A stretch of 14,246 bases of DNA from a virus (taxonomy: Duplodnaviria > Heunggongvirae > Uroviricota > Caudoviricetes): IMG/VR virus record IMGVR_UViG_2690316231_000009, positions 1 to 14,246 of that record. One strand, given 5' to 3'. The position numbers were made by a program, and so were the translations under genes. Positions 1 through 14,114 of this stretch are shown here, piece after piece. Under the pieces are notes generated by a model. It did no database searches. It was not told the DNA's origin and worked only from the letters and a program-made list of their open reading frames with translations. Each line of letters starts with the position of its first letter. The stretch's first letter is position 1.

Positions 1-431
1 TACTGCCCTTTGCTCAGGTCTGCCTTCGGATGATTCAGCGTACTCATATCCTGCACATCATGCAGGCAGTGGTCGGCCGGAATAATATCGTTATATCTGC
101 AGGCAGCCCCACCCGGCGTAACTGTACTGCGGCGCGCCAGCTGTTTAATGCGCGGATCCGGAGCATCGTATGAATCCGGCAGCGGAAGCCCTTCACCGTA
201 AGCCATGGCATTGGACTGCCCGGCCAGTACGATGACGTAGTACCAATCCGGCTCAGTTGCACCACTGACCACCACATCACCTTCTGCTGTAATCGCCTGC
301 ATCAGGGTATAAGGGGTTATGGCCACCGGACTACCAAACGGCTGCCAGCCCTCTTTCAGTTTGTGTGTCAGCTTTTCCGCAAGGTCTGACGGCGACGCCG
401 CCCTGACAACATCATAATGTTTAAATGTCAT
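1..431 (-). CDS. N-terminal part (about 143 codons) of a NanS-p-like prophage sialate O-acetylesterase (DUF1737-type N-domain followed by SGNH/SASA esterase); gene continues beyond the window start
   Basis: Minus-strand ORF open from ATG at 431-429 to the window edge, so it is absent from the ORF track (no stop in window). GGAGG Shine-Dalgarno (RC of 436-440) 4 nt upstream. Translation begins MTFKHYDVVRAASPSDLAEKLTHKLKEGWQPFGSPVAITPYTLMQAITAEGDVVVSGATEPDWYYVIVLAGQSNAMAYGEGLPLPDSYDAPDPRIK; the AGQSNAMAYGEG stretch matches the GQSN motif of sialate O-acetylesterases. Family assignment is from memory. Confidence 0.6.
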   Translation of the reverse strand, partial: MTFKHYDVVRAASPSDLAEKLTHKLKEGWQPFGSPVAITPYTLMQAITAEGDVVVSGATEPDWYYVIVLAGQSNAMAYGEGLPLPDSYDAPDPRIKQLARRSTVTPGGAACRYNDIIPADHCLHDVQDMSTLNHPKADLSKGQ

Positions 432-473
432 TATTCCTCCCGGCCGGGATAGTGTATTAAATCAGATATGGAG

Positions 474-520
474 TGGGCTGTAGTCCGGAAGCCTGAATGA
501 CACACGGGGACTACAGCCCA
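474..520. repeat. 13-bp perfect inverted repeat (TGGGCTGTAGTCC / GGACTACAGCCCA) with 21-nt spacer, upstream of the esterase gene
   Basis: Arms at 474-486 and 508-520 are exact reverse complements. No flanking T-tract on either strand, so not a canonical intrinsic terminator. Confidence 0.5.
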
Positions 521-616
521 AGAAATGAAAAAAGGCCACGCAGTTGCGCAGCCTGATAAACCCTGGTTAAAATCCACACGATAACAACACAACAATATCA
601 GTATCTCATGCTATTG

Positions 617-641
617 CCCGAACCCATTCGGGCATTTTTTA
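617..641 (+). terminator. Candidate rho-independent terminator, plus strand
   Basis: GCCCGAA (617-623) / TTCGGGC (628-634) 7-bp stem, 4-nt loop, followed by ATTTTTT (635-641). No plus-strand ORF lies upstream, so the terminated transcript is unknown. Confidence 0.45.
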
Positions 642-646
642 CCCAT

Positions 647-673
647 AAAAAATGCCCCTCCGGAGAGGGGCAT
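647..673 (-). terminator. Candidate rho-independent terminator, minus strand, downstream of the TerB-like gene and small hydrophobic ORF
   Basis: ATGCCCCTC (652-660) / GAGGGGCAT (665-673) 9-bp stem with CGGA loop; A6 at 647-652 gives a U6 tract immediately 3' of the hairpin on the minus-strand transcript. Confidence 0.55.
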
Positions 674-838
674 GTTTGCATGCACATTCTTTTTCTTGCA
701 TGGTGCCGGGTGCCTCCCGGTGAATTCAGTATCAGCACCTGAATCCGCGATTATCCCATATACCTGGTTGCTGATCGCCCCTCCGCACAGGGGGATTCAC
801 CATGCAGAAGTGTTTTTAATAAACAGCAAATAAAAAAA

Positions 839-1006
839 TCAAGCATTATGCAGGCTGTTTCTTTTTATCACCGGCCACAGCAATACCACAATGCCGCAGA
901 CCAGCACCCCATCCGCCAGCACCGACATGATTCTGCTGGTGAAATCCACCATCACCACCAGAAACAGCAGGAGTGCAGCCACAGCCAGGCGCAGTTTTAC
1001 CGTCAC
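839..1006 (-). CDS. Possible small hydrophobic (membrane) protein, about 55 aa, translationally coupled to the upstream TerB-like gene
   Basis: Not in the ORF track (GTG start). GTG at 1006-1004 overlaps the TGA stop (1005-1003) of the TerB-like ORF. Translation VTVKLRLAVAALLLFLVVMVDFTSRIMSVLADGVLVCGIVVLLWPVIKRNSLHNA has two hydrophobic stretches. Stop TGA at 841-839. No independent SD; may be spurious. Confidence 0.3.
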   Translation of the reverse strand: MTVKLRLAVAALLLFLVVMVDFTSRIMSVLADGVLVCGIVVLLWPVIKRNSLHNA

Positions 1007-1435
1007 AGGTGATTCTCCAGACGAAGACCCAGAACACCGGCAATCTCTTCCAGCACCTTGCGCTCTTCCGGCTCAATTTCGCCGTCTGCCTCCGCAATGG
1101 CCACCGCCACATCCAGCACATCTTCCGCTTCACGCGTATCGTGTTTCACATCCTCGATCTCACGTAACGCCGCACGACGACCAGTTTTAAAGTTCGTATC
1201 CAGCTGACCGATAATGGTTGCGCTAATCGCATTAATTTCCGAGGTAAACGCAGACAACGCAGGCTGATTACGTAAGACCTGTTCGATCTTCGCTTTCTCG
1301 GAAGCCTCACATTCACCATCTGCACAGGCCACCAGGTATGCGGCGTTAATCACCGCCTGTGCCAGATCGCGTTTTTCAAACTTTTTAATTTCCGTTGCCG
1401 CTCTGCGGGCTTTTTTTACCAAAAATACCAAACAT
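1003..1435 (-). CDS. TerB-like (tellurite-resistance TerB family) protein; reading frame interrupted by an apparent 1-nt frameshift in an A7 homopolymer (1411-1417)
   Basis: The long in-frame ORF (track 1003..1464) can only start at TTG 1464-1462. A well-placed ATG at 1435-1433, preceded by AAGGA 8 nt upstream, is in the adjacent frame and stops after 16 codons (MFGIFGKKSPQSGNGN). Removing one A from the A7 run joins it to the long frame, giving MFGIFGKK-ARRAATEIKKFEKRDLAQAV.... The protein has two ADGE-type motifs (LVACADGECEASEK and AIAEADGEIEPEER) typical of TerB-like domains. Confidence 0.6.
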
Positions 1436-1566
1436 CGTGACGTTCCTTTGGGTGGGTGAGCCAACGCCCGGGAGCGATCTGCCCACAGAGAAAGTCACAC
1501 TGACCACTCCGTAAGCTCCCCCCCGAAAGGCTCTGTGGTTGGTATGCGCCGGGCGTGGCGCAGATA

Positions 1567-1600
1567 CAAAAAAGGCCCGCAAAAGCGAGACGGGAAAATA
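1567..1600 (-). terminator. Weak candidate terminator after the tRNA cluster
   Basis: On the minus strand a short GC-rich hairpin (CCCG...CGGG) is followed by CCTTTTTTG (RC of 1566-1574). Stem is only about 4 bp, so support is weak. Confidence 0.25.
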
Positions 1601-1607
1601 AGTGTAG

Positions 1608-1681
1608 CGCGTTGTACTGGAGTCGAACCAGTGACCGATTGCTTAGAAGGCAATTGCTCTGTCCTGCTGAGCTAACAACGC
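1608..1681 (-). tRNA. tRNA-Arg (anticodon UCU); the 3' CCA is not encoded (genome gives CUA)
   Basis: Manual cloverleaf fold of RC(1608-1681): acceptor GCGTTGT/ACAACGC (7 perfect pairs), D-stem GCTC/GAGC, anticodon stem ATTGC/GCAAT with loop CTTCTAA (anticodon TCT), T-arm ACTGG-TTCGACT-CCAGT, discriminator G. Positions 1605-1607 read TAG, so the 3' tail would be CUA rather than CCA. Confidence 0.8.
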
Positions 1682-1694
1682 AGAATACCGATAA

Positions 1695-1771
1695 TGGACC
1701 ACCACCGGGGACTCGAACCTCGCGCAACCAGCTTCGAAGGCTGACGCTCTATCCCGATGAGCTAATGGCGG
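1695..1771 (-). tRNA. tRNA-Arg (anticodon UCG), with a slightly imperfect cloverleaf
   Basis: RC(1695-1771) = CCGCCATTAGCTCATCGGGATAGAGCGTCAGCCTTCGAAGCTGGTTGCGCGAGGTTCGAGTCCCCGGTGGTGGTCCA. D-stem GCTC/GAGC, anticodon loop CTTCGAA (anticodon TCG), T-loop TTCGAGT, encoded CCA. Acceptor stem has two G-U pairs, T-stem has one A-C mismatch and position 1 is C. Confidence 0.7.
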
Positions 1772-1778
1772 TATGTGA

Positions 1779-1854
1779 TGGTGGCCCTTGCTGGATTTGA
1801 ACCAGCGACCTGGCGATTATGAGTCGCTCGCTCTCACCACTGAGCTAAAGGGCC
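1779..1854 (-). tRNA. tRNA with CAU anticodon, most like tRNA-Ile2 (ileX/ileZ type); part of a phage ileZ-argN-argO-like cluster
   Basis: RC(1779-1854) = GGCCCTTTAGCTCAGTGGTGAGAGCGAGCGACTCATAATCGCCAGGTCGCTGGTTCAAATCCAGCAAGGGCCACCA. Perfect acceptor stem, anticodon loop CTCATAA, T-arm GCTGG-TTCAAAT-CCAGC, encoded CCA. Closely resembles E. coli tRNA-Ile2 as I recall it. Spacers to the neighbouring tRNAs are 7 and 13 nt. Confidence 0.85.
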
Positions 1855-1882
1855 GAGCCAAAAAATAATAATCAGATGAAAA

Positions 1883-2596
1883 TCAATAATCAAGCCCTTG
1901 CCTGGATACATATCTGTCTGGCGGGAAGCCATAATAGCGGTGAAATACAGAAATAAAGTAGGACCTGCTTGAATAACCGCATTTTTCTGCTATAGTCTGT
2001 CCATATCCATGCCGGGAACATAACATATTTACAGCAACACGCATCCGCTCTTCCAGCAACAAGCGACTGAACATGCCCCCTTCATTTTTCAGTTTTGTCT
2101 TTAACAAACTCTCACTCATATGCAACTGTAGAGCAATCGCACCAAGCGTCCAGCTTGCTGATATATCTGTCTGAATTATCGCCCTGACTTTGGCACTTAT
2201 GCTGGATAAACATCCACTTAAAAACAATGACATCCGTTCATCTGTTTCAAACAGAGACAGGCAGGCCATCATAAGAAACATATCCGTGGCCTCTCCGGAA
2301 AATCCCTGGCTGGTAATTAAAGCCGCAGCCAACGCAGGATTGTTGGGTTCCAGCAACAGGTAAAGCGGAATGTCAGTCAGACGAGTCCTCGTCAGCTTAT
2401 GCTGACTTTCCAGATATTGACTTACGACGGATTCGCTTATATCGACAATTTTAACTTTGCCATAATGCATAAGGAAAAGCTCCCTGATGCATTTGGTGGC
2501 CAGAACAACTGAGCCTGGCTTAAGTGACAACGTATCCTTTTCAAGAAAAATATTAATTGGGGAGCAAACCATGATAACTGAACAGACAACAGCCAT
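1883..2596 (-). CDS. AraC/XylS-family transcriptional regulator (prophage moron)
   Basis: 237-aa ORF; the C-terminal about 100 aa (SESLLKTKLKNEGGMFSRLLLEERMRVAVNMLCSRHGYGQTIAEKCGYSSRSYFISVFHRYYGFPP) is a typical AraC-type double HTH. AT-rich relative to flanking phage genes. ATG at 2596 has no clear SD; an in-frame ATG at 2572 is an alternative start. Confidence 0.8.
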   Translation of the reverse strand: MAVVCSVIMVCSPINIFLEKDTLSLKPGSVVLATKCIRELFLMHYGKVKIVDISESVVSQYLESQHKLTRTRLTDIPLYLLLEPNNPALAAALITSQGFSGEATDMFLMMACLSLFETDERMSLFLSGCLSSISAKVRAIIQTDISASWTLGAIALQLHMSESLLKTKLKNEGGMFSRLLLEERMRVAVNMLCSRHGYGQTIAEKCGYSSRSYFISVFHRYYGFPPDRYVSRQGLDY

Positions 2597-2717
2597 TATA
2601 ATTTTACTTTCATTAGCAATTGGTTAGCTCAATTATAGCCCCAAAAGGTAAATTATCATCAACACATAAGCAAAGGACTGACAGGTGTCGCCCCCCCACC
2701 AGCCGCCCATTCACCAC

Positions 2718-2744
2718 AAATAAAAAGCCTTCAGGACTGAAGGC
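2718..2744 (-). terminator. Rho-independent terminator of the small regulator gene
   Basis: GCCTTCA (2727-2733) / TGAAGGC (2738-2744) 7-bp stem with GGAC loop, overlapping the stop codon of the 2731..2928 ORF; followed on the minus strand by TTTTTATTT (RC of 2718-2726). Confidence 0.6.
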
Positions 2745-2928
2745 GTCTGTAACAACCGCACTGATAGTCTGCCAGACCCGCCATAACAAGCTGGGTCAGT
2801 ATTAACTGGCAGCGTTCGCGTGAAAGGTAAGTATTCTGCGCAATCTCCCCGACTGTCGCCGGTTCGGTAACGCTTAATTCATCAAACACAACTCTGGCGG
2901 TTTCTGTCATATCCTGCTGTTTCAGCAT
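2731..2928 (-). CDS. Small winged-helix regulator, PapI/FaeA-like (65 aa)
   Basis: ATG at 2928; own intrinsic terminator at the 3' end. MLKQQDMTETARVVFDELSVTEPATVGEIAQNTYLSRERCQLILTQLVMAGLADYQCGCYRRLQS has the size and helix pattern of PapI/FaeA-type fimbrial regulators. The family assignment is a structural guess from memory. Confidence 0.45.
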   Translation of the reverse strand: MLKQQDMTETARVVFDELSVTEPATVGEIAQNTYLSRERCQLILTQLVMAGLADYQCGCYRRLQS

Positions 2929-3053
2929 GTCTTTTTACCCTTTCCGGTTAACGTGACATACCAATAACTCTTGTCTAAAAAGCCAGCAAGATAAAAAGCC
3001 AGTATTCACGACCACCAGCGTGTTTACTGTACTGCACCAGGTTTACAGGTACA

Positions 3054-3137
3054 AAAAAACCGCTCAGCGGCGGGTTTAAGTTGTGTGGCGAAGTAACCAC
3101 TCTTAACAGCATATTTTATTTTTTACGATTGTAAACG
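3054..3137 (-). promoter_or_regulatory. Candidate promoter followed by a weak hairpin plus U7 terminator (possible Q-dependent late promoter / tR'-like element)
   Basis: Minus strand reads TTTACA (RC of 3132-3137), 16-nt spacer, TATGCT (RC of 3110-3115). About 40 nt downstream, CCGC-TGA-GCGG (RC of 3062-3072) is followed by TTTTTTT (RC of 3054-3060). The stem is only 4 bp, so the terminator call is weak. Confidence 0.3.
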
Positions 3138-3200
3138 GTTGATTATTCATCTCCAATAAAAATAATTGTGTGGGTATGCCCTTAACAATGGATAAGAAAC

Positions 3201-3647
3201 ATGAATAAAATGACTGTACTATTACTTAGCGCAACTATCATTTCAGGTTGTACTTCTTCCGTACCATTGATAAAGAAAACTCAATCAGGAAAACCTGAGG
3301 GGGTTTATCAAAATACGACAAAAGATAAAGTCAAAGATGCCCTTGTGAATTACTGCAATAGTAGAGGGTTGATAATTTACAACGCGGATAACAGCAGTGT
3401 TATATGTGGTAAAGAACTGGAAGGCGGCTCTGCTGTTTTTGGACAAATGTTAATCGGCAATGCCTATTCAACAACCCCGGTATCAAAAGTCAGATTTACT
3501 ATCGCTCAAGTTAATAACGATACAAAAGTGTGGGCCGATATGTGGATGGAAACTCAAATGGCAATGGGGCAAGTACAACAAATGTCTATAACAGACAACG
3601 CAAGCAAAAACACTATCCAACAACGTCTTGATGAATTAAAACCTTAA
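3201..3647 (+). CDS. Lipoprotein of unknown function (148 aa), AT-rich moron convergent with Q
   Basis: N-terminus MNKMTVLLLSATIISGCTSS has a positively charged n-region, hydrophobic core and lipobox ISGC. Markedly lower GC than surrounding phage genes. Opposite strand to the lytic operon. Confidence 0.7.
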   Translation: MNKMTVLLLSATIISGCTSSVPLIKKTQSGKPEGVYQNTTKDKVKDALVNYCNSRGLIIYNADNSSVICGKELEGGSAVFGQMLIGNAYSTTPVSKVRFTIAQVNNDTKVWADMWMETQMAMGQVQQMSITDNASKNTIQQRLDELKP

Positions 3648-3648
3648 A

Positions 3649-3686
3649 TAAATTAAATAAAATGGGGAGAATAAATCGACTCCCCA
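3649..3686 (-). terminator. Rho-independent terminator just downstream of Q, lying between the convergent Q and lipoprotein genes
   Basis: TGGGGAG (3663-3669) / CTCCCCA (3680-3686) 7-bp stem with 10-nt loop; on the minus strand it is followed by TTTTATTTAATTTA (RC of 3649-3662). Confidence 0.5.
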
Positions 3687-3727
3687 CACATTAAACTGAT
3701 TCAATTACCCCCTCAATAAGAGGTCTT

Positions 3728-4093
3728 CTAACGATCCATCTCTAGCTCAATTTCTAACATCATTAACATGCCATCAACTACACCTTCAGCTTTTTGCAAT
3801 AAACGCCCAACCCAGCAATCAGAACGCCCATGTTTACGGGCAAGCGCCATAAAAGTCATACCACCTACATAATAATCCACTAATAAATCGTGCAAATCGC
3901 TGTTGTTCTTTTTCAGGCGAGCCATGCATCCACAAATGATCATCGCGTCATCGTCACAACATTGCGGGCGGGATTTTACTTTTGAAGGGATTAGTCCTTT
4001 AAATCCTGCAGCAATAGACGACCAGGTGACATCCTCGTGATTATTTGCCACCCATGCCCCCCAACGTTCAAGAACCATTTGAATATCACGCAT
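3728..4093 (-). CDS. quuD: Late-gene antiterminator Q, QuuD-like
   Basis: Starting at ATG 4093-4091 (GGAG SD 7 nt upstream) the protein reads [75 protein letters not shown]..., which I recognise as very close to the DLP12 prophage antiterminator QuuD (YbcQ). The track start at 4108 is a TTG extension. Confidence 0.8.
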
Positions 4094-4110
4094 CAACTTT
4101 CTCCACAAAA

Positions 4111-5106
4111 TCAGGCCAGCACGCCAATTGCCAGCGCACGATCGATAAAACGAAATATCAGCTCCAGCTGGGAGCCATACTTCTCTTCAAATGCCACGGT
4201 ATCCGCATGCAGCTCGTCGTGATGCTTTCTGCACAAAGGCAACACAAAAAGGTCATGCGCTTTTGTTCCCATTCCACCCTGACCGTGACCTATCAGGTGG
4301 TGGGGATCATCAGCGGGCTTTCCACAACATGCACACGGCTGTGTCTTAACCCAGCGCGTGTACTTTTCATTAACCCAGCGGCGACGTTTTGGGCGTAACA
4401 TAAAAGACTCCGGCGACTCCGGATCCACTTTCAGCGCCAGCACCTTTTTCGCCTTATCCTGGATGATGCTGGTGGCAGGAACCGAAGGCACAAGGTCACT
4501 TTCCCGGGTAACAGACGGCACAACAGGCTTCGGTAATCTCAGTGCCTTACGGGCTGCACTTTCCGGTAAGGCATCCGCCAGATCATTACGAATCAGCCAC
4601 CAGCACAGTTCCGGCATTGTCACAACGTGACTGTCATCAAAACCGAGATCCCGACGCACAACAGACAACACCCAGCGGGCACAGTTATCCGTTGCCATTG
4701 ATTCCAGCCGTTCCGTGAACTGATCGCGCAGCTGGTTATCGCAGTGCCAGCACAGACGGATTGCACCCGGAGCGTGTCGCATTGTGGTCATGTTCTCGCT
4801 GTGCCAGTCGGAATGAGGCCACTGGCAGCCTTTTTCACGAAGTAACCAGCTTTCAAGACATTCCACGCCACCAGCACGACGGATCACTGCCTCATTGCGG
4901 AACACGGCCCGAACGGCAGGATCATCCGCCAGCGGTTGTGATGCCGCCGGAACGGCACCACTGGCGAAAGATGAATAACGCTCCGGCTCAGGCTCCAGCA
5001 GGACACGCCCCTGCATAAACAGGGGCATCAGCTCTGAACCTGGCCTGAACAATACGATCCCCATACGCGGGGCAATTTCAGGGGTCAGTAGTGCTCTCAC
5101 GGTCAC
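4111..5106 (-). CDS. DUF968-family protein (HNH-like Cys/His motif), lambdoid nin-region type
   Basis: 331-aa ORF; C-terminal [45 protein letters not shown] matches the DUF968 signature. GTG start at 5106 lies 1 nt after the KilA-N stop (coupled); exact start uncertain. Confidence 0.75.
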
Positions 5107-5107
5107 C

Positions 5108-5917
5108 TCAATGAACGGTATCGAGCAGCTTTAACAGCTCAGGGAATCGGGATTCGAAGAAATGCGGCTGCGTCTCGCGCGGATTTGCGGGACTGGTGAT
5201 GTTCTTGCCGAACATGCAGCCTTTCGCTGTCAGCGACCAGAATTTTTTGATGTTGTTAATCGCGGTACGACTGTATCGTTCGCGCTGCTCGACGATCCCC
5301 AGTTTCACCATCTGGTGATATGCCTGATTAGCCGTCAGGCGTATACCATACTGTTTCAGCAGTGCACTCAGTGACAGTGTCGGGCGACTTGAGCCATCGT
5401 GTGCATCAGCAGGAGCATCAATGGCATAGCGCGGTGCCAGATTCGGTAAGCCAACAGCCTCCTGGAGTTTCTGACAGGCACCAAGCACAGATGAGTTAGA
5501 CAGGTTTAACTCCCGACGCATAAAGTCCAGCAGAATCACACCAGCCTGCATCTTGTCAGCAGCCTGTCCGGATAATTTTTCCGGTGCGCTGGTTACCATG
5601 TCGAAAGTACGGATCACCTTAAGATGGAATGACGGGCTTATCCACATTGCATAGGCATACACCAGTTCTTTGCAGACATACGTTCCCCGTTCATTTCCCC
5701 CATGAATCACACTCACCGGGTCAACACCCAAATTCTGGGTGTTGGTCAATTCATGAACAAGTTCAACAGTTTGTTGGCTGGAAAGAAACTTTCCTGGCTC
5801 CTTGGTTCTGGCATTTGCACCAGATGCTACTGCTGCGCGATGTAGATCGTTCAGGCTGTAACGCCCATAAACATCACGACGAACTTCAATACCATCAATG
5901 ACCATCAGATTATTCAT
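5108..5917 (-). CDS. KilA-N domain protein (putative antirepressor-like)
   Basis: Best start is ATG 5917-5915 with AGGAG 9 nt upstream (MNNLMVIDGIEVRRDVYGRYSLNDLHRAA...); the track start at 5950 is an 11-codon extension. The N-terminal about 110 aa (...GGNERGTYVCKELVYAYAMWISPSFHLKVIRTFD) is a KilA-N domain. Confidence 0.75.
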   Translation of the reverse strand: MNNLMVIDGIEVRRDVYGRYSLNDLHRAAVASGANARTKEPGKFLSSQQTVELVHELTNTQNLGVDPVSVIHGGNERGTYVCKELVYAYAMWISPSFHLKVIRTFDMVTSAPEKLSGQAADKMQAGVILLDFMRRELNLSNSSVLGACQKLQEAVGLPNLAPRYAIDAPADAHDGSSRPTLSLSALLKQYGIRLTANQAYHQMVKLGIVEQRERYSRTAINNIKKFWSLTAKGCMFGKNITSPANPRETQPHFFESRFPELLKLLDTVH

Positions 5918-5936
5918 ACTTCGTTTCTCCTCTTGA

Positions 5937-6326
5937 TCAGGCGGCTGCACCCGCCGTTTTCTCGTACTTACTGATAGTGATCTCGACCTTCCCTTTCGGG
6001 ATAACCGGTCCCCACTCCACCAGCATTCTTTTCACCTGACTGTCGTCTTCCCACACACCCGCGTGGGTCAGGGCGTCAAACAGCGCCTTGTTATAGTTGT
6101 CCAGATCGCGGATCCTGTTATCCGGAGGAAACAACACGATCTCCACTGAAGCAGGTGCCGACGTTGGTTTCGGCAGACGACGTAACTGCTCAATGATGGC
6201 GGCACACGCCGCGCTCTGAAATTTTCGCCCCGCCTCGCTTATCAGGCTCTTACCAGCAAATGCCCCTTTGTTGGGGTGTCGCCAGTACGTGTTCACGCTG
6301 GGCGGAAAAGGCAGTATTAGCTTCAT
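5937..6326 (-). CDS. rusA: RusA-family Holliday junction resolvase
   Basis: 129 aa; MKLILPFPPSVNTYWRH...VEIVLFPPDNRIRDLDNYNKALFDALTHAGVWEDDSQV matches RusA hallmarks (PxxxN..YW N-terminus, acidic RDLDN catalytic region). ATGA overlap with the upstream methyltransferase stop. Confidence 0.85.
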   Translation of the reverse strand: MKLILPFPPSVNTYWRHPNKGAFAGKSLISEAGRKFQSAACAAIIEQLRRLPKPTSAPASVEIVLFPPDNRIRDLDNYNKALFDALTHAGVWEDDSQVKRMLVEWGPVIPKGKVEITISKYEKTAGAAA

Positions 6327-6976
6327 GCCACCATCTCCCTGACCAGTTTTTCCGCCTGCTGGCGAACCTGCGCCAGAAAGGCCTCACCACATGCCTCAAG
6401 TTCATCGCGCCCGATGTAGCTGATTGCCGGTCCCTTCCAGGTCTTGTCGAAAACAGCAATAGCACCAGCGAAGAAAGCGCCTGTCGGCACCTGCTTCTCA
6501 TCCTTCGGGATAAACCAGGCAGGCAGTTCAAAACCAATACGCCCGCGAATAAAAGTAATATGGTCCGCATCTTCCGGCCACCACACTTCGCTGGTGGCCG
6601 CTTTGATCAGGAAAACATAGCGCCCGCCCTTATCACGCATGGCACTGGCATGTTTCATGATGTAACGCATGCCGGTGATGTATTGCCCCTCATGCTGACT
6701 GGCGCGGCTGTATGGGGGATTACCAAAGGCAGCACCTTTAAGCTCCGCAAGACGTTCTGACCAGTCATGCGCCAGCGCGTTGTCTTCCGCCGTGTAATAC
6801 GCGGCACATTTGGCGTTATCACCGTCAGTGAACAGATCCAGAACAAACGGACCAAACAAGGTGTTAATTCCCCAGAAAATGTTGTCCGGCGTGCGCCACT
6901 GATCGCCCACTTCCTTCAGTTCATGGGCTGGTTTGTTCCGCAGTTCTACCAGCGCCTGGCAATATTTATTACTCAT
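6323..6976 (-). CDS. Phage N6-adenine DNA methyltransferase (orphan, Dam-like)
   Basis: Start ATG 6976-6974 with GGGGG SD 4 nt upstream (MSNKYCQALVELRNK...); the track start at 7021 is an extension. Contains the amino-MTase motif IV GNPPY (AAFGNPPYSRAS). No adjacent restriction endonuclease gene. Confidence 0.8.
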   Translation of the reverse strand: MSNKYCQALVELRNKPAHELKEVGDQWRTPDNIFWGINTLFGPFVLDLFTDGDNAKCAAYYTAEDNALAHDWSERLAELKGAAFGNPPYSRASQHEGQYITGMRYIMKHASAMRDKGGRYVFLIKAATSEVWWPEDADHITFIRGRIGFELPAWFIPKDEKQVPTGAFFAGAIAVFDKTWKGPAISYIGRDELEACGEAFLAQVRQQAEKLVREMVA

Positions 6977-7070
6977 TAAGCCCCCACGTAAAAAGCATCC
7001 GCAATGTCTCCGGAAGTACACCCCGGATGGGCTTCAATGAATTTCTGAACTTCATTCAAAAGACTCATGA

Positions 7071-8066
7071 TCACCCCCTGAATCCTTCCGGGATCTGGCT
7101 GTAGTCCACGTTGTCGTAACTGGCTTTGAAGTACGGGTCCTCGCGTCTGGCTGCAGATACCGCAGGAACTTCCCAGGATTCTTCGAAATGACGATCCGGA
7201 CCAAAGAACGTCGACGCCTGCTTCACGAACTGGGTACCGGTATTTCCAGAGACACGCACCCAGGCGGCATAGCGTTTCACACCGTCGAGCATGGTTTCGG
7301 GTGTCACACCTTCCCTGATTCGGGCTTTCCAGGCTTTAAAAGCGGCGGATTTTGAATTACCACCAGCACGTTTGGGATATTCCTGCCAGGCCTGTTCAAA
7401 TTCCGGTGAATATTCCTGTCTGGCAGAACGCGCTGGTGCAGACGCGTCAGCGGATGCGCCAATAGTGTTTTTAGTCTCCGTTGTAATCTCTGTAGTAATC
7501 TCTGTAGTAATCTCTGTATTTGTATCAACATTCGGCGTATCCCCTGTTCCGTTATGACGTCGGGGGGTGTTCCGTTTTAACGTAATAGCTGTATCGCTGA
7601 TTGCATTATTGCTGTTACTTTCTGGCGAAACAGAAGAAGGTGTGGTGATGGCCGCAATTGCCTGTGGGTTGATCCCGACAAACAAAATATTGCTGCATTT
7701 CACCCCATCGAGCATTTCCACCGTGCGTAAATCCAGAGTAATAAACCCTGCATCGCGCAGACGCTTCAGCGCATCTGCGGTTTCCCTTTTCCCGAAACCA
7801 AACTGCTCAGCAAACGCCTGGTAGCTTCTTTGCAGTTTGTCGCCCTGAAAACGCTTGCGATATCCCAGCAACGCTCCGGTGTGCTCATCCCTGACCTCTG
7901 TCGGGCGGTACCAGTAAACGATCTCTGAAAGCAGAGCGATAGCCGTCGCATCCGGACGCCCACTGGGTAGTCGAATATATTTCCACCAGGTCGCAGGTGT
8001 AACATTGCCGGAAATATTAATTTGACCAATAGCCATAACTTCCGGTGTGGGGGCGTAACGGCTCAT
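7071..8066 (-). CDS. Putative phage replication initiator / replisome organizer (O-like) with internal tandem repeats
   Basis: 331-aa ORF; ATG 8066 with AAGGAGG SD; ATGA overlap with the upstream ORF. It sits where lambdoid phages place the replication initiator and contains 12-bp tandem repeats encoding TEITTEITTEITTE. Function is inferred from position and the embedded repeats, not from a recognised motif. Confidence 0.5.
   Translation of the reverse strand: MSRYAPTPEVMAIGQINISGNVTPATWWKYIRLPSGRPDATAIALLSEIVYWYRPTEVRDEHTGALLGYRKRFQGDKLQRSYQAFAEQFGFGKRETADALKRLRDAGFITLDLRTVEMLDGVKCSNILFVGINPQAIAAITTPSSVSPESNSNNAISDTAITLKRNTPRRHNGTGDTPNVDTNTEITTEITTEITTETKNTIGASADASAPARSARQEYSPEFEQAWQEYPKRAGGNSKSAAFKAWKARIREGVTPETMLDGVKRYAAWVRVSGNTGTQFVKQASTFFGPDRHFEESWEVPAVSAARREDPYFKASYDNVDYSQIPEGFRG
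7471..7518. repeat. Tandem 12-bp direct repeats (three exact or near-exact copies plus one degenerate), candidate origin iterons inside the replication gene
   Basis: TAATCTCTGTAG at 7483-7494 and 7495-7506, TAATCTCTGTAT at 7507-7518, preceded by the degenerate copy TAGTCTCCGTTG at 7471-7482. In-frame within the 7071..8066 CDS. Confidence 0.75.
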
Positions 8067-8362
8067 ACAACCTCCTTCCGCAGCATGAGAATTGTGTAGC
8101 CACGCGCAGGTTGTAGTCTGGCTTTTGCATCAATAGTAAGCGTTGCAATTTTTCGGATATGAAGATAACCAGCTCTTTCCAGTGCCAGGGTTTCCCTGAA
8201 TATCGCTTGCTTAGAACAACAGCAGAAATCAGCAAGCACCTGATGATCAATAACTCTCTCGCCTTCACCGTCTGAAGAACCCGACATCAAAACACGCAAC
8301 ATAATCAGGCGCTGAATCGGGTTATCGAAAGCACATCCGCACACAAACTGAAAACAGTTCAC
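8063..8362 (-). CDS. Hypothetical protein (99 aa), possibly HTH-containing
   Basis: GTG start at 8362-8360 overlaps the stop of the upstream ORF (GTGA); its stop overlaps the start of the replication gene (ATGA). No family recognised. Confidence 0.45.
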   Translation of the reverse strand: MNCFQFVCGCAFDNPIQRLIMLRVLMSGSSDGEGERVIDHQVLADFCCCSKQAIFRETLALERAGYLHIRKIATLTIDAKARLQPARGYTILMLRKEVV

Positions 8363-8583
8363 GCCACACCTCCCAGACGCTTAAACATTTTTCCGGAGCA
8401 AAAGGCTATAAGCGGCATACTGACGCGGTAATTACGGCCCAGCGGTTCACAAACCACCTTCTGACATTCACGGTCAACCAGGCTAACACGTAGAACATGC
8501 CCAGCAGGCGTGGTGTACCACTGACCCGGACGAGGACAACGGAAAGTATGATTGGTAAACCGTTTGAAAATATTCCGGATCAT
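8359..8583 (-). CDS. Hypothetical protein (74 aa)
   Basis: ATG 8583-8581 overlaps the TGA stop of the Rha ORF (ATGA). No recognisable motif. Confidence 0.4.
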   Translation of the reverse strand: MIRNIFKRFTNHTFRCPRPGQWYTTPAGHVLRVSLVDRECQKVVCEPLGRNYRVSMPLIAFCSGKMFKRLGGVA

Positions 8584-9740
8584 TTGCGCCCCCTTACCTC
8601 TGAAGGGTTCAGCGACAAATTTATGAGACTGGCCAGCGCCGAAGCATCATTAATATAGTCATATAAGCTAACAGCCAGCGGAGATTCGGCTTTTGCCAAC
8701 ATAGGATAAAGCTGCTGCAGCCAGACCTGATGAATTGATGAAATGTAGGAACAGAGAACGCTGGCGTTATGTGCAACGTCGCTCGGTACAGCGGGCTTTG
8801 AAAGCTGTTTCTCCATCTGGTTAAAGGCATTTATGTATGCCTCTTTGAACCGGGCAGCACGTTTACCCGTGAAACCCATAGCAAGAAACGCAAAACCGTC
8901 TCGTGTGATTTGATAGCAAGGGAGCTTGCGTGTACCACCGTTCGGTTGATTTACCGAAATCGATGTCTCCGCAAAATTGCGGGCACAAAACTCTGGGGAA
9001 CAATCCAGAGTGCGGATCTTTTTCAGCACATCGTCGTGACGCTTGGAGAAGAAGTTGGCAACAGCCAAAGAAGTGGTAACGGCCTGGCCGTTGTCAATGG
9101 TGATTTCAGGTTGAGTGAGGGCTGGGATCGTAGCCATGATGGCAGCCTCCGTTGACAGTGAAAAACTTCCACCACCGGAAACGCCAATTTCACTGGTGGT
9201 GAACTGGACGGGGTTGGCGTAACCGGCGTCAACGGAGACCGGCGCACCTTTCGGTGCCCCCGCCCAGCCCACCATAATCTGGATGTGAGCAAATGCGGAC
9301 GATAAAAAAGACGCTGGCGCGTCATACATCGCCGTTGACAATTTCAGGACGCCAATCCCGGCACCCGCTTTATAAGGTGCCTGAGCAGTGTAACGTCCCG
9401 GAATTGCAGAATCAATATGCTGGTGGTCCTTCACACTCAACAAAATCACGCCTGAATTTCCACAAAGGACTAAAGCACTCATGCGGGTAGTCTTTGCGAA
9501 GATAGATAACGCGCTGTGTTTCTGGCTCCCAACGAATAACATGGACATAAAGCCCTCTTCCGTCACGAAACCAGCGGTTAAGTTCCTGCACAACTCGCCC
9601 CCCACAGTCAGGTAAAGTTCTCTGTGGTTACTTACAGCCAGGTGATTTGGTAATCTGCATTCATGCCGTAACAACAGGTGTTCAGCGACGCTGACCACCA
9701 GCTGTTGCGACAAACGGTTATTTGCCGTTAAACTATTCAT
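8580..9740 (-). CDS. Rha-family phage regulatory protein with an about 200-aa N-terminal extension of unknown function; strong internal start at 9137
   Basis: 386-aa uninterrupted ORF. Residues about 220-310 (LAVANFFSKRHDDVLKKIRTLDCSPEFCARNFAETSISVNQPNGGTRKLPCYQITRDGFAFLAMGFTGKRAARFKEAYINAFNQME) form a Phage_pRha domain. ATG 9740 overlaps the CII-like stop (ATGA). An internal ATG at 9137 with GGAGG 8 nt upstream would give a 185-aa stand-alone Rha protein (MATIPALTQPEITIDNGQAV...). Confidence 0.6.
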   Translation of the reverse strand: MNSLTANNRLSQQLVVSVAEHLLLRHECRLPNHLAVSNHRELYLTVGGELCRNLTAGFVTEEGFMSMLFVGSQKHSALSIFAKTTRMSALVLCGNSGVILLSVKDHQHIDSAIPGRYTAQAPYKAGAGIGVLKLSTAMYDAPASFLSSAFAHIQIMVGWAGAPKGAPVSVDAGYANPVQFTTSEIGVSGGGSFSLSTEAAIMATIPALTQPEITIDNGQAVTTSLAVANFFSKRHDDVLKKIRTLDCSPEFCARNFAETSISVNQPNGGTRKLPCYQITRDGFAFLAMGFTGKRAARFKEAYINAFNQMEKQLSKPAVPSDVAHNASVLCSYISSIHQVWLQQLYPMLAKAESPLAVSLYDYINDASALASLINLSLNPSEVRGRK

Positions 9741-10294
9741 GCGTTAGTTTCTCCACAACCAGAAGCAATCGACGCCACGACGCCCGGAGCTGCACACTCG
9801 CGGGCGTTACTATTTTCTGGAGCGCAGAAGATTTTGTAGACCAGTGCTGCATGCTCCTGGAGCTTCGAAATTGAAAGATACAGTTCGTCGTTAATTGCTG
9901 TCTTCTCATGCGGTTCCACTACACCGTCTTCGATTGCTGAACGAATCTGTTTTGAATAACTGCCGATCTGTTCAATGACTTCCAGTAAACGCTGGTTAAT
10001 ATCGGCATTGTCCACATCCTCGACGTCAGGAAGAGACACAAAGACGCCATTTGCAGACTGCGCCACAGCGTCAGCAATGAAGTGAGTGCCACCAGCACGT
10101 TGTAAAATCATTGCCCATCCCAGCGGGAAAATCTGATCGCCATCGGCACGAAGGCGGTTAAATAATGCGTTCTCTGTTACATCCAGCCACTCAGCAGCTT
10201 CAGCGTAACCCTCCGGCAACGCCGCGATAGTTTTTCTGACAGCTTTCACGTACCACTCAGGCTGTTTTTCCACTTTCCAGTGATGATTACCCAC
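9737..10294 (-). CDS. Putative CII-like lysogeny regulator (phage 186 CII / CP76-like), 185 aa
   Basis: GTG start at 10294 with AGGAGG 6 nt upstream; immediately downstream of cro, where lambdoid phages place cII. Assignment rests on position and loose resemblance only. Confidence 0.4.
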   Translation of the reverse strand: MGNHHWKVEKQPEWYVKAVRKTIAALPEGYAEAAEWLDVTENALFNRLRADGDQIFPLGWAMILQRAGGTHFIADAVAQSANGVFVSLPDVEDVDNADINQRLLEVIEQIGSYSKQIRSAIEDGVVEPHEKTAINDELYLSISKLQEHAALVYKIFCAPENSNARECAAPGVVASIASGCGETNA

Positions 10295-10547
10295 GGCTTA
10301 CCTCCTGTTCCTGTGGTTTAAACCCATTCTGGTTTTGGCTAGATTGAAAACGTGCCGGATAAAGAATCTGCATTTCGCTGATTTCACCCTTAAAAAAATT
10401 GGCCAGACGTTCTGCAAGATCGATAGATGGAATTTGTTCCAGTCTTTCAATACGACTCAGCGTCGCTGGATTGACCTGAACGCCAGCAGCAACATGCTGC
10501 AAAGTAAATCCGTGCGCCTTACGCACATTCCGTAATGGTGATTGCAT
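10287..10547 (-). CDS. Cro-like HTH (XRE-family) regulator
   Basis: 86 aa; MQSPLRNVRKAHGFTLQHVAAGVQVNPATLSRIERLEQIPSIDLAERLANFF is a canonical XRE HTH. Divergent from the repressor gene across an operator-rich spacer; GGAGG SD upstream of ATG 10547. Confidence 0.75.
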   Translation of the reverse strand: MQSPLRNVRKAHGFTLQHVAAGVQVNPATLSRIERLEQIPSIDLAERLANFFKGEISEMQILYPARFQSSQNQNGFKPQEQEVSRG

Positions 10548-10644
10548 ATGACCTCCACATATTGCGTGATGAGCATATTATTTCACGCAAATATTTTGCG
10601 CAAGTTGATTTGCTTAACGCGCAATAAAGAAATGTAATAAACGC
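10548..10644. promoter_or_regulatory. Immunity-region divergent promoter/operator spacer (OR-like) with repeated TTGCG...CGCAA palindromic elements
   Basis: TTGCGTGA (10562-10569) / TCACGCAA (10583-10590) and TTGCGC (10596-10601) / GCGCAA (10619-10624) form two 29-bp inverted repeats of identical geometry. TTGCGCAA (10596-10603) is an 8-bp palindrome. TTGCTTAACGCGCAA (10610-10624) resembles the 15-mers found downstream of cI. Confidence 0.6.
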
Positions 10645-11337
10645 ATGAACATAGGAAACCGAGTCAGACAACTTCGCCAGGCGAAGAACATGAAAATCGC
10701 CGATCTCGCTGAAGCAATAGGAGTGGATGCGGCGAATATCTCACGCCTGGAAACAGGTAAGCAGAAACAATTCACTGAACAAGCCCTGAGTAATATTGCC
10801 AGGAGCTTAGGTGTTGATATTGCTGATCTCTTTACCTCAGACGTCAAAAGTAATACTGTATGTAAAAACAGTATTAGTGAGGATGTTGCGCAGGTGAAGG
10901 ATGTATTCCGTATTGAAATGCTGGATGTCAGTGCCAGTGCGGGAAATGGCCTTATCCAGGGCGGTGATGTCATTGATGTGATTCATGCCATTGAATACAG
11001 AACTGATAATGCTGTATCGATGTTTGGCGGACGGCCAGCCAATCACATTAAAGTTATCAACGTTCGTGGGGACAGTATGTGTCCAACCATTGAGCCAGGA
11101 GATCTCATCTTCGTTGATGTCAGTATCAATCAGTTTGATGGAGATGGTATCTATGTATTTGGTTTTGATGATAAAATTTATGTCAAACGACTGCAAATGA
11201 TACCTGACAAACTACTGGTGATTTCTGATAACCAGATTTACCGTGAATGGGGAATTACCAGCGAAAATGAACACCGGTTTATGGTCTTTGGAAAGGTCTT
11301 AATCAGCCAGTCACAAACCCTTAAGCGACACAATTAA
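10645..11337 (+). CDS. CI-type prophage repressor (HTH_XRE N-domain plus S24 LexA-like autopeptidase C-domain)
   Basis: 230 aa; N-terminal HTH (VRQLRQAKNMKIADLAEAIGVDAANISRLETGK); Ala-Gly cleavage site (SASAGNG); catalytic Ser in GDSMCPTI and Lys in YVKRL. No SD precedes the ATG at 10645. Confidence 0.9.
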   Translation: MNIGNRVRQLRQAKNMKIADLAEAIGVDAANISRLETGKQKQFTEQALSNIARSLGVDIADLFTSDVKSNTVCKNSISEDVAQVKDVFRIEMLDVSASAGNGLIQGGDVIDVIHAIEYRTDNAVSMFGGRPANHIKVINVRGDSMCPTIEPGDLIFVDVSINQFDGDGIYVFGFDDKIYVKRLQMIPDKLLVISDNQIYREWGITSENEHRFMVFGKVLISQSQTLKRHN

Positions 11338-11357
11338 CCCTTACCTCCTCATCAATT

Positions 11358-11382
11358 AGCCACCCAAAGGTGGCTTTTCATT
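11358..11382 (+). terminator. Rho-independent terminator downstream of the repressor gene
   Basis: AGCCACC (11358-11364) / GGTGGCT (11369-11375) stem with CAAA loop, followed by TTTTCATT. Confidence 0.6.
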
Positions 11383-11392
11383 ACCCTTTAAA

Positions 11393-11446
11393 TTGCATAT
11401 CTCGCAATAAAAACACTTGCATAATGCGCAACTTCATTTTATCTTT
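11393..11446 (+). promoter_or_regulatory. Candidate OL/pL region: two 15-bp operator-like elements overlapping a promoter-like sequence
   Basis: TTGCATATCTCGCAA (11393-11407) and TTGCATAATGCGCAA (11417-11431) share the TTGC-N7-GCAA layout seen in the cI-cro spacer. TTGCAT (11418-11423) followed 17 nt later by TATCTT (11441-11446) is promoter-like. Confidence 0.35.
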
Positions 11447-11876
11447 CTTTCCAGACAAACAAACAAGGTACTAACAAAATTTGGTTGTAACACGACGTAT
11501 GGCACATGCGTCGTTAGCGGTCTGGGGACGTTAAAGGGGACAATCCACTCCTTGCTCGAGCAAACAAACCAGGTAGCCGGAATGTGCAAGTCAATGATGA
11601 TGCTGATAAGACGCCTAACCAGCGTGGCGGTTCGGTTTGACACCTGGGAAGAGACCAGGGTGCAACGATGAGGGCATTTATGGAACCGCGACAAAGTGTG
11701 GTGCCGTAACTGGCTAAGTGCTCTCAGCGTTGTGGTGAATGCGCAGGCTGATGCGCGAAAGACATTGCAGCTATTGCGGAAAAGAGCTGTTCGGCGGGGC
11801 AATTAAACGCCCGTGAGAGTCTGAAATAACCGCAAGCCGGAGATCAGCACCGGTCACCACAACAGCCACTGCTTTG

Positions 11877-11923
11877 GCGGTACCAGTTTGTACACTTGCT
11901 TCCGGCTGGTACCGCTCTTTTTA
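11877..11923 (+). terminator. Candidate intrinsic terminator/attenuator in the early-left leader; its T-tract resembles a boxA element
   Basis: GCGGTACCAG (11877-11886) / CTGGTACCGC (11906-11915) 10-bp stem with 19-nt loop, followed by TCTTTTTACAAAA. CGCTCTTTTTA (11913-11923) resembles boxA (lambda CGCTCTTA; rrn GCTCTTTAACAA). Confidence 0.35.
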
Positions 11924-12059
11924 CAAAACAGAGAAGAGCATCACCGGCCGACGGGCTCATAACCCAATCCATCCGGGCGGCTGCCACCGCAGGTGTTCTT
12001 CTCTGTTTTGTGGAGAAACCAACCGACCTTGCAGGGTCGATATGATGAGGAGCAGCAAA

Positions 12060-12422
12060 ATGGCTAGCGAACGCAGTACTGATGTGCAGGCATTTATCGG
12101 GGAGCTGGACGGCGGCGTATTTGAAACCAAAATCGGCGCTGTTCTCAGTGAAGTCGCTTCCGGTGTGATGAATACGAAAACCAAAGGTAAGGTCTCGCTC
12201 AACCTGGAAATCGAACCATTTGATGAGAACCGTGTGAAAATCAAACACAAACTCTCATATGTTCGCCCGACTAACCGCGGGAAAATTTCCGAAGAAGACA
12301 CCACCGAAACGCCGATGTATGTCAATCGCGGTGGTCGCCTGACTATTCTGCAGGAAGACCAGGGACAATTACTGACTCTTGCCGGTGAACCTGACGGAAA
12401 ACTCCGCGCAGCAGGTCATTAA
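12060..12422 (+). CDS. Hypothetical early-left protein, YfdP-like (120 aa)
   Basis: ATG 12060 with GAGGAG 7 nt upstream (MASERSTDVQAFIGELDGGVFETKIGAVL...). The track ORF 11874..12422 adds an implausible upstream extension. Resemblance to CPS-53 YfdP is from memory. Confidence 0.5.
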   Translation: MASERSTDVQAFIGELDGGVFETKIGAVLSEVASGVMNTKTKGKVSLNLEIEPFDENRVKIKHKLSYVRPTNRGKISEEDTTETPMYVNRGGRLTILQEDQGQLLTLAGEPDGKLRAAGH

Positions 12423-12487
12423 TATCGTTTTTAATAAACTGATTATTTCTCTCATCACTGAATATTTTTATATAGTGAGGACTTATT

Positions 12488-13312
12488 ATGTCTCAGAACT
12501 TAGACGCAACCGCAATTAATCAAATCCATGCCCTTATTTCTGCTCAGGGTGTTAATGAAATTATCAGTAAGATTGGTGCCGATGCTGTGGCATTGCCTGA
12601 GAATTTCCGCATTCATGATCTGGAAAAATTTAATTTAAATCGTTTCCGTTTCCGTGGTGCGCTTTCCACTGCCAGCATCGATGACTTTACTCGTTATTCT
12701 AAAGATCTTGCAGATGAAGGCACCCGCTGCTTTATCGATGCCGATAATATGCGTGCCGTCAGTGTGCTTAACCTGGGTACTATTGATGAGCCAGGTCACG
12801 CAGATAACACTGCCACTCTCAAACTGAAAAAGACAGCACCGTTCTCTGCTCTGTTGTCTGTTAATGGCGAGCGTCATTCCCAGAAGTCACTGGCAGAATG
12901 GATTGAAGACTGGGCCGACTACCTTGTGGGCTTTGATGCTAATGGTGACGCTATTCAGGCAACAAAAGCGGCTGCGGCTGTCCGTAAAATCACGATTGAA
13001 GCAAACCAGACCGCTGATTTTGAAGATAATGACTTCAGCGGCAAACGCTCCCTGATGGAGTCTGTCGAAGCGAAAACCAAAGATATTATGCCAGTGGCAT
13101 TTGAATTTAAATGCGTTCCGTTTGAAGGTCTGAAAGAACGTCCATTTAAATTACGCCTCAGCATTATCACTGGCGATCGTCCTGTACTGGTTCTGCGCAT
13201 TATTCAGCTGGAGGCGGTGCAGGAAGAAATGGCTAACGAATTTCGTGATCTGCTTGTTGAGAAATTCAAAGACAGCAAAGTAGAAACCTTTATTGGTACT
13301 TTCACCGCCTGA
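12488..13312 (+). CDS. DUF2303-family protein, YfdQ-like (274 aa)
   Basis: ATG 12488 with GTGAGG 7 nt upstream. Sequence [40 protein letters not shown]...[11 protein letters not shown] matches my recollection of E. coli CPS-53 YfdQ in length and sequence. Confidence 0.65.
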
Positions 13313-13324
13313 TTTCATTACTGC

Positions 13325-13346
13325 AAATGCCCCTGCGGGGGCATTT
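13325..13346 (+). terminator. Hairpin between the YfdQ-like and YfdR-like genes (weak terminator or attenuator)
   Basis: AAATGCCCC (13325-13333) / GGGGCATTT (13338-13346) 9-bp stem with TGCG loop; the downstream T-tract is short. Confidence 0.3.
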
Positions 13347-13439
13347 ATGGAAACGTAATTGACTCAATAATCGCCGGATGGTGAGGGCTTCCTTTTACCA
13401 GAATTCAGCGTGGTGCAGCACATATACGCGGAGAACAAA

Positions 13440-13964
13440 ATGTCATTTATTAAAACTTTTTCCGGGAAGCATTTTTATTATGACAGGATAAATAAAGACG
13501 ACATCGTGATTAACGATATCGCGGTTTCCCTTTCAAATATCTGTCGCTTTGCCGGTCATCTTTCACACTTCTACAGTGTCGCCCAACATGCGGTGCTTTG
13601 CAGCCAGCTGGTGCCGCAGGAATTTGCTTTTGAAGCGTTAATGCATGATGCAACAGAAGCGTATTGCCAGGACATCCCCACGCCGCTGAAACGTCTTCTT
13701 CCTGACTATAAACGGATGGAAGAAAAAATAGACGCCGTAATCCGTGAGAAATACGGGTTACCCACGGTTATGAGCACGCCTGTGAAATATGCCGATCTCA
13801 TCATGCTGGCAACCGAACGCCGCGATCTCGGGCTTGATGATGGCTCTTTCTGGCCTGTACTGGAAGGTATCCCGGCAACAGAGATGTTCAAAGTTATTCC
13901 ACTGTCGCCAGGCCATGCCTATGGGATGTTTATGGAACGCTTTAAAGAGTTAACTGAGTCGTAA
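13440..13964 (+). CDS. HD-domain phosphohydrolase, YfdR-like (5'-deoxynucleotidase family), 174 aa
   Basis: ATG 13440 with GGAG 6 nt upstream (MSFIKTFSGKHFYYDRINKDDIVINDIAVSLSNICRFAGHLSHFYSVAQHAVL...LMHDATEAY...). The H...HD metal-binding motifs are present. The track start at 13410 is an extension. Confidence 0.7.
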   Translation: MSFIKTFSGKHFYYDRINKDDIVINDIAVSLSNICRFAGHLSHFYSVAQHAVLCSQLVPQEFAFEALMHDATEAYCQDIPTPLKRLLPDYKRMEEKIDAVIREKYGLPTVMSTPVKYADLIMLATERRDLGLDDGSFWPVLEGIPATEMFKVIPLSPGHAYGMFMERFKELTES

Positions 13965-14072
13965 AAATCAGCACGTACGAATTCAAACTCTGCCATAAAA
14001 GAACATATAAGTAATTTATTAACATATAGATATAGGTTATATTACAAATTGAAAAATTATTGGAGAGCAACA

Positions 14073-14114
14073 ATGAATCAAAATCCATTCTCATTCTATG
14101 ACTTTCTTGGATAT
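14073..14114 (+). pseudogene. 5' remnant (14 codons) of a gene truncated by the IS2 insertion
   Basis: ATG 14073 with GGAGAG 5 nt upstream; reads MNQNPFSFYDFLGY and then runs directly into the IS2 terminal inverted repeat, whose first three bases (TAG, 14115-14117) supply the stop. Confidence 0.4.

Follow-up and report, generated by a model that had tools for sequence, protein, structure and literature searches.

The name tci recalls the tellurite, colicin and phage phenotypes of the ter operons of plasmids. TerB associates with TerC, which is an integral membrane protein of the terZABCDE operons, and the TerB-like proteins DjlA and those of the DUF533 type bear membrane segments of their own and are tethered in cis. 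The locus studied here resembles terZABCDE, DjlA and DUF533/YebE in that a TerB-fold protein occurs together with a membrane component, which is predicted in our case. Unlike TerC, this component is a peptide of 55 aa, without similarity to TerC. Genes for TerC, TerD, TerA and TerZ were not found in the window, that is, the whole stretch of 14,246 nucleotides analysed in this study (positions 1 to 14,246 of the IMG/VR virus record IMGVR_UViG_2690316231_000009).

The closest described gene set is tciABC of phage P1. Its annotation was given "by homology", and the label is twenty years old. The P1 genes tciA, tciB and tciC were non-essential by CRISPRi (PMC10695390), and the tci operon was lost in about half of one P1 subgroup (PMC9603915). 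The two loci are alike in gene order: first comes a TerB-family gene and then one for a DUF3927 protein of about 54 aa, and stop and start overlap (TGATG in P1, GTGA in the window). Both adjoin phage tRNA genes and are alike as non-essential cargo. TciB of P1 is 50% identical to that of the window, and TciA is 40% identical. P1 has tciC, whereas the window lacks it and STnc100 follows tciB instead. In P1 the tci genes belong to the C1-controlled ban region, whereas those of the window are late-region genes behind Q and follow a conserved leader, which is missing from P1. A tblastn search with P1 TciC gave only chance-level matches outside P1, and tciC was absent from every other locus examined. 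A 31-codon frame at 751-846 (minus strand), which overlaps the tciB stop, was considered as tciC and rejected: it shows no similarity to P1 TciC and lies inside STnc100.

The stx2AB slot of 933W-type phages is another system for comparison. Its upstream flank, the tRNA cluster and its terminator, is the same as that of the window, and so is its downstream flank of STnc100, an AgvB/AsxR-type sRNA and a NanS-like esterase. A copy of STnc100 is reported 75 nt downstream of the stx2 operon (PMC12370729). The cargo is unrelated: the window has 733 bp with leader, tciA and tciB, whereas 933W has 1369 bp with stx2AB. On the best reading, the small frame at 839-1006 is very probably tciB, the second gene of a mobile leader-tciA-tciB cassette, which a lambdoid E. 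coli prophage carries in the stx slot between the tRNA cluster and STnc100.

Identity and coding status of tciB

A sequence-only reading of the window had described a 55-codon frame whose GTG start overlaps the stop of a TerB-like gene, and the frame is present as described. The features of the gene pair are as follows.

839..1006, minus strand: tciB (DUF3927), a coding sequence for 55 aa that runs from a GTG to the TGA at 841-839
1003..1006, minus strand: GTGA, in which the tciA (TerB) stop TGA at 1005-1003 and the tciB start GTG at 1006-1004 have TG in common
1015..1018, minus strand: Shine-Dalgarno GGAG of tciB, 8 nt 5' of the GTG, inside Leu-Glu codons of tciA
1003..1435, minus strand: tciA (TerB family), body in frame from the TTG at 1431 (RefSeq start)
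1411..1417, minus strand: A7 homopolymer at tciA codons 7-9; in-frame relatives have A6 or AAAAAGAAA
1435-1433, minus strand: canonical tciA ATG, one base out of frame in this copy
1443..1448, minus strand: Shine-Dalgarno AAGGAA of the canonical tciA start, 7 nt 5' of the ATG

The predicted peptide has 55 residues, MTVKLRLAVAALLLFLVVMVDFTSRIMSVLADGVLVCGIVVLLWPVIKRNSLHNA. Its residues 3-51 matched profile positions 2-50 of 53 of PF13064 (DUF3927) with 62.3 bits (E=4e-17; cut-off 25 bits), and PHROG 1470, "TciB-like", matched it over the full length (positions 1-54 of 54, E=4e-30). Compared with these two families, TciB has the same length and the invariant Asp-Phe motif, the match is full-length and above threshold, and there is no structural difference. 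A word-indexed search returned 224 protein clusters, all of which carry PF13064. When phage genomes were searched with tblastn, genes annotated as tciB were matched in P1, P7 and SJ46. Among lambdoid phages the matches were in 434, 2B8 and Fostie, and the N4-like podoviruses that were matched include Pollock and FSL SP-058/076. The prophage of E. coli strain E2 (NZ_CP104509.1) differs from the window by 4 substitutions over the first 14.1 kb, and the same ORF is present there as WP_000216636.1 of RefSeq, a "DUF3927 family protein". The frame at 839-1006 is a genuine gene, tciB, and a member of DUF3927 on every sequence criterion tested. The earlier description of the ORF as unlisted is true of the ORF list used for that reading, but RefSeq, Pfam, PHROGs and the P1 annotation all have it. 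The gene, its family and its pairing with TerB were already known, since they stand in public annotation (in the P1 genome under the name tciB), and the finding is correct but ordinary. A literature search found no test of DUF3927 function and no ribosome-profiling or proteomic record of the family, and the Qin prophage of E. coli K-12, checked for a named DUF3927 homologue with expression data, has none annotated.

The conservation of the frame was examined in 104 loci from species-representative genomes and IMG/VR, and selection was measured on a 45-codon core of 28 distinct homologous sequences. The tciB frame was without a stop in 28/28 sequences, and the median pairwise dN/dS was 0.22. 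Four of the five other frames were broken by stops in 10 to 28 of the 28 sequences. The remaining one, the antisense mirror frame, had a stop in 1/28 sequences and a dN/dS of 0.31, and its openness is what a constrained sense frame usually brings about on the opposite strand. K4, D21, F22, D32, P45 and K48 were invariant among E. coli, P1, 434, Pollock and Fostie (alignment A1). The junction with the GGAG was also kept in relatives when the loci were compared. By these sequence comparisons, tciB was shown to be a conserved coding sequence under purifying selection. The conservation across homologues and the absence of interrupting stops thus bear out the frame that the sequence-only reading had put forward.

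A chance ORF in the 3' UTR of the TerB mRNA would also be short: 55 codons are unremarkable by length, ORFs of about this size are frequent in the ORF list, and the mirror frame on the antisense strand is mostly open as well. Against this stand the family matches in Pfam and PHROGs (E=4e-17 and 4e-30), the low dN/dS with zero stops in 28 distinct sequences at about 50% amino-acid divergence, and a start position and overlap type that are kept across genera. Because these conservation data contradict it, we give a chance ORF practically no credence.

Two length variants were noted beside the gene. A change in the length of a T-run 3' of the tciB stop stretches some annotated DUF3927 proteins to 84 aa (e.g. 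P0001), and in an IMG/VR locus (L088) the GTGA junction, at about 2498, has lost 1 nt, which joins the TerB and TciB frames. Both are probably homopolymer/indel variants or assembly errors.

Pairing of tciA with tciB

The partner gene belongs to the TerB family. PF05099 matched the tciA product with 55.7 bits (cut-off 24.4), PHROG 632 also matched, and residues 13-136 aligned with TerB of PDB 2JXU (E=1.5e-7), a soluble helical domain. The matches to DUF533 and DjlA were weak. In PADLOC the tciA product gave only a weak match, to the candidate system PDC-S48 (E=0.002).

TerB lies directly upstream of DUF3927 in 98/104 loci, with an overlap of 4 nt or 1 nt or with direct abutment. The 4-nt GTGA overlap is found in 86 of the 104 loci, and the 1-nt overlaps TAATG or TGATG occur in Pseudescherichia, Franconibacter, Pantoea, Rosenbergiella and Buttiauxella. 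In P1, TGATG joins tciA (TerB family) to tciB and also tciB to tciC. In the N4-like phage Pollock the TerB gene abuts tciB (TAAATG), and the lambdoid phage Fostie has a 4-nt overlap. tciB accompanies both of two TerB subtypes, one about 40% and the other about 90% identical to the TerB of the window. Seven of the most divergent DUF3927 members from an exhaustive profile search were looked up, one of which had too little flanking sequence. In these divergent metagenomic members PF05099 TerB was found immediately upstream in 6/6, where the two genes overlap by 8, 4 or 1 nt or lie 5 nt apart. Their contexts vary: the pairs are found after a cro-like gene, by a phage RNA polymerase, or beside AIPR/SMC-like genes. 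The data show that the tciA-tciB unit is a conserved entity and moves as a unit between unrelated phage types. The pair is widespread in several such types, and in E. coli it is carried by many prophages of pathogenic strains in the Shiga-toxin slot. The two-gene cargo module that had been suspected from the sequence of the window is therefore well founded: besides the pairing counts, the pair replaces stx2AB when compared with 933W.

Three metagenome and genome contigs (L227-L229) carry a divergent tciA-tciB pair without an obvious phage late region around it. Their neighbours are SMC/AAA_23 and metallophosphatase genes, an AIPR abortive-infection-type protein, or H-NS, which gives them a defence-island-like appearance.

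A fused TerB-DUF3927 protein, which would speak for a physical complex, was sought by a profile search of 1.84 billion representatives, and none of the 115 matches was a genuine fusion. Nearly all of these matches are 50-65 aa long, and the three long ones (176, 137 and 119 aa) were rejected as fusions, being chimeric or frameshifted gene calls. Judged from the sequence, the stop/start overlap argues for translational coupling of tciA and tciB. It is the overlap that carries this argument, since the RNA fold at the junction was no more structured than shuffled controls (z = -0.12). Ribosomes that end tciA would restart at the GTG, aided by the GGAG 8 nt upstream, and both proteins would be made together.

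In the window, the TerB-like partner proposed by the sequence-only reading is confirmed by the PF05099 and 2JXU matches, but the canonical start of this copy is frameshifted. All distant TciA homologues have the ATG in frame and begin with Met-Phe-Gly-Ile-Phe-(Gly)-Lys-Lys or similar, and the AAGGAA is conserved in all lambdoid-type relatives. In the window the ATG is followed by GGT and the A7 run, which ends the canonical ATG frame after 16 codons, so an intact canonical frame is not found here. RefSeq uses the TTG 4 nt downstream of the ATG. Among the sampled loci, the run is A7 in 28 and A6 in 12. Phase variation at this run was considered and rejected as the simplest reading, because the A7 alleles have linked substitutions in common and look like one clade. 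Slippage on such runs is known in general, and by analogy the frame of the A7 alleles may be restored by a +1 slip of tRNA-Lys or by the loss of one A in transcription. Because of the frameshift in tciA, the synthesis of TciA, and with it the coupled synthesis of TciB, is probably reduced in this prophage. For annotation, the small frame deserves a gene call as tciB/DUF3927, and the adjoining TerB gene should be marked as a frameshift allele in this copy.

About 12 related prophages have one shared deletion, in which the region at about 2935-3015 (window numbering) is joined to about codon 17 of tciA. What is lost extends from a small ORF and the AraC-like regulator through tRNAs and leader into the 5' end of tciA, and tciB is spared. 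It was seen at loci L076, L080, L048, L031, L096, L067, L035, L050 and L065.

Loci in which tciB outlasts tciA raise the question of whether the pairing is functional. TciB may be a stand-alone small membrane effector, for example in envelope permeability, lysis timing or superinfection, for which TerB is dispensable. The adjacency of TerB would then reflect co-transcription and co-transfer without physical partnership. TerB-free tciB is known from phages 434 and 2B8, where the gene follows an unrelated membrane protein, and from a few prophages. Of the sampled loci, L016 is without TerB, and L013 retains only its C-terminal half. In about 12 E. coli loci TerB is 5'-truncated and tciB is intact, in the window tciB is intact behind an out-of-frame canonical tciA start, and tciB has a GGAG of its own. 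However, TerB stands upstream in 98/104 loci and in 6/6 divergent members, and such a spread over unrelated phage types is difficult to account for unless the two genes are functionally linked. Moreover, the truncated-TerB loci have one common deletion joint and the A7 alleles are one clade, so both may represent recent decay and not selection on tciB alone. We consider a stand-alone effector unlikely.

The preferred reading is that TciA, a soluble protein of TerB fold, would have TciB as its partner or anchor in the membrane and would be tethered by it in trans. This role is proposed because the TerB-like proteins DjlA and DUF533 have their membrane segments in cis.

Predicted membrane topology of TciB

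The TciB peptide is very hydrophobic (GRAVY = +1.43). It has two apolar stretches, at residues of about 5-20 and 26-47, in agreement with the two hydrophobic segments noticed earlier from the sequence, and Asp-Phe-Thr-Ser-Arg lies between them. Lys/Arg residues are found at both ends. The hallmarks of DUF3927 are also present, namely the Asp-Phe-(Thr/Ser) turn between the stretches and an Asp-Gly in the second stretch. Crude sums on the Hessa scale were -4.1 kcal/mol for residues 7-20 and +1.0 for residues 26-44, the second sum being raised by the conserved Asp32. The hydrophobicity supports a membrane location of TciB, as far as the sequence can tell.

A short acidic turn and basic residues on either end lead us to propose that TciB would lie in the inner membrane as a helical hairpin. 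Both Lys/Arg-bearing ends would be cytoplasmic, and the conserved Asp-Phe-Thr-Ser turn would face the periplasm. An AlphaFold2 model from a shallow alignment of 12 sequences gave one continuous helix over residues 3-53 (pLDDT 89) and no hairpin. Because the alignment is so shallow, this predicted single helix neither backs nor rules out the hairpin. A sequence search of the PDB with TciB returned no relative.

Cargo slot, leader and neighbouring RNAs

The window is part of a lambdoid prophage. Its minus-strand order is Q, an AraC regulator, three tRNAs, a terminator, the leader, tciA, tciB and STnc100; beyond STnc100 follow AgvB on the other strand and then the start of a NanS-like esterase. 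The features around the gene pair are as follows.

1883-2596, minus strand: YdeO/GadX-like AraC-family regulator, 237 aa, between Q and the tRNAs
1607-1854, minus strand: three tRNAs, the cluster upstream of the cassette
1576..1589, minus strand: terminator-like hairpin after the tRNA cluster, upstream of the cassette
824..1556, minus strand: leader-tciA-tciB cargo cassette, the segment without 933W homology
1436..1556, minus strand: untranslated leader of the cassette, about 120 nt, from alignment and consensus fold; covariance model R1 covers 1433-1575 with 152 bits
641-831, minus strand: sRNA STnc100 (RF02076), 143 bits (gathering score 47), beginning 8 nt after the tciB stop
673..652, minus strand: intrinsic terminator, the 3' hairpin of STnc100, followed by a T-run, 165 nt downstream of tciB
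579-640, plus strand: anti-GcvB sRNA AgvB (RF02702), 96.5 bits, full-length and near-consensus
1-431: start of the NanS-like esterase, last in the minus-strand reading order

Homology to 933W in this region is confined to 324-823 and 1557-1858, and 933W has stx2AB between these two segments. Because the homology breaks at 824-1556, where 933W has stx2AB, the cassette occupies the stx slot. The hairpin at 1576..1589 has its counterpart in the terminator that the 933W annotation places upstream of stx2. A promoter-like site was sought on the minus strand between this post-tRNA terminator (1589..1576) and tciA, and none was found. As the cassette lies behind a terminator and has no clear promoter, we infer that late transcription antiterminated by Q probably accounts for most of its expression.

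The leader is kept in E. coli prophages, Fostie, Pseudescherichia, Franconibacter, Enterobacter and Pantoea. It is better conserved than the coding sequences, across genera and across both TerB subtypes, even between TerB proteins of only about 40% identity. The predicted helices are a GCGCC/GGCGC hairpin, CCACAGAG/CUCUGUGG and GGUGAGCC/GGCUCACC. Two of the predicted helices cross, which would mean a pseudoknot or alternative folds, and a CC-UUU segment is predicted to be able to pair with AAAGG of the tciA ribosome site. In the leader alignment 95% of the cells are paired, and only 4 are compensatory, each in a single sequence; covariation is this low because the sequences barely vary. In a motif scan of IMG/VR, TerB and tciB were found downstream in 66/68 leader-bearing loci with enough sequence. 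The covariance model matched in lambdoid-type cassettes only, and an Rfam search gave no match for the leader. The leader may be new, and we offer it as a lead and not as a result.

From these data, a wider reading can be put forward, which we hold only tentatively and think more doubtful than not. The functional unit might be a three-part cassette of a structured leader hiding the ribosome-binding site of tciA, a protein with the TerB fold, and a membrane anchor peptide of 55 aa. The leader would then be an undescribed cis-regulatory RNA, a switch responding to a ligand, temperature or an sRNA, and it would gate a phage-borne membrane-stress module in the Shiga toxin slot. If this is true, TciB would be the first example of a micro-protein that tethers a TerB domain to the membrane in trans. 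If the anchor role of the peptide and the signal of the leader were shown, the label "by homology" would become a mechanism.

Downstream of the pair, the minus-strand terminator reported by the sequence-only reading does exist as the hairpin at 673..652; however, it belongs to STnc100, which lies between the terminator and the ORF. The small size of TciB, its strong hydrophobicity, its phage origin and the presence of sRNA genes within 200 nt would fit a type I toxin-like, membrane-damaging peptide under the control of STnc100 and AgvB. Yet no Rfam RNA is antisense to tciB; STnc100 lies downstream on the same strand and AgvB beyond it. STnc100 is not tied to tciB, because it holds the same position after stx2B in phages without tciB. 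The DUF3927 family is defined by its coupling to TerB, without an antitoxin RNA, and TciB matched no toxin family in Pfam, NCBIfam or PADLOC. None of the defence-system models of PADLOC matched TciB either. A type I toxin is therefore highly improbable.

Some minor observations concern the neighbouring genes and RNAs. The AraC regulator matched the NCBIfam models YdeO (E=3.5e-31) and GadX (E=1e-24), both below the equivalog cut-offs, and it resembles the prophage-encoded acid-resistance regulators of pathogenic E. coli. The tRNA at 1779-1854 (minus strand) was called Met (anticodon CAT) by ARAGORN, and the equivalent gene is tRNA-Ile (ileZ) in RefSeq and in the 933W annotation. For Ile2 tRNAs with the CAT anticodon, the call between Met and Ile is usually ambiguous. 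Since 933W homology begins only at 823, any promoter upstream of there differs between the cargo types, which raises the possibility that STnc100 arises from the cargo mRNA, either by read-through or by processing. AgvB has its own terminator and is convergent with STnc100. After the terminator of STnc100, the minus strand has a second terminator-like hairpin (554..533), antisense to AgvB and beyond it. The minus strand at 530-640 gave only weak Rfam matches, to GcvB and OmrA-B (E about 0.1-0.9), and this segment may hold a further prophage sRNA, possibly one like PasA/PasC (bioRxiv 10.64898/2026.05.13.724894).
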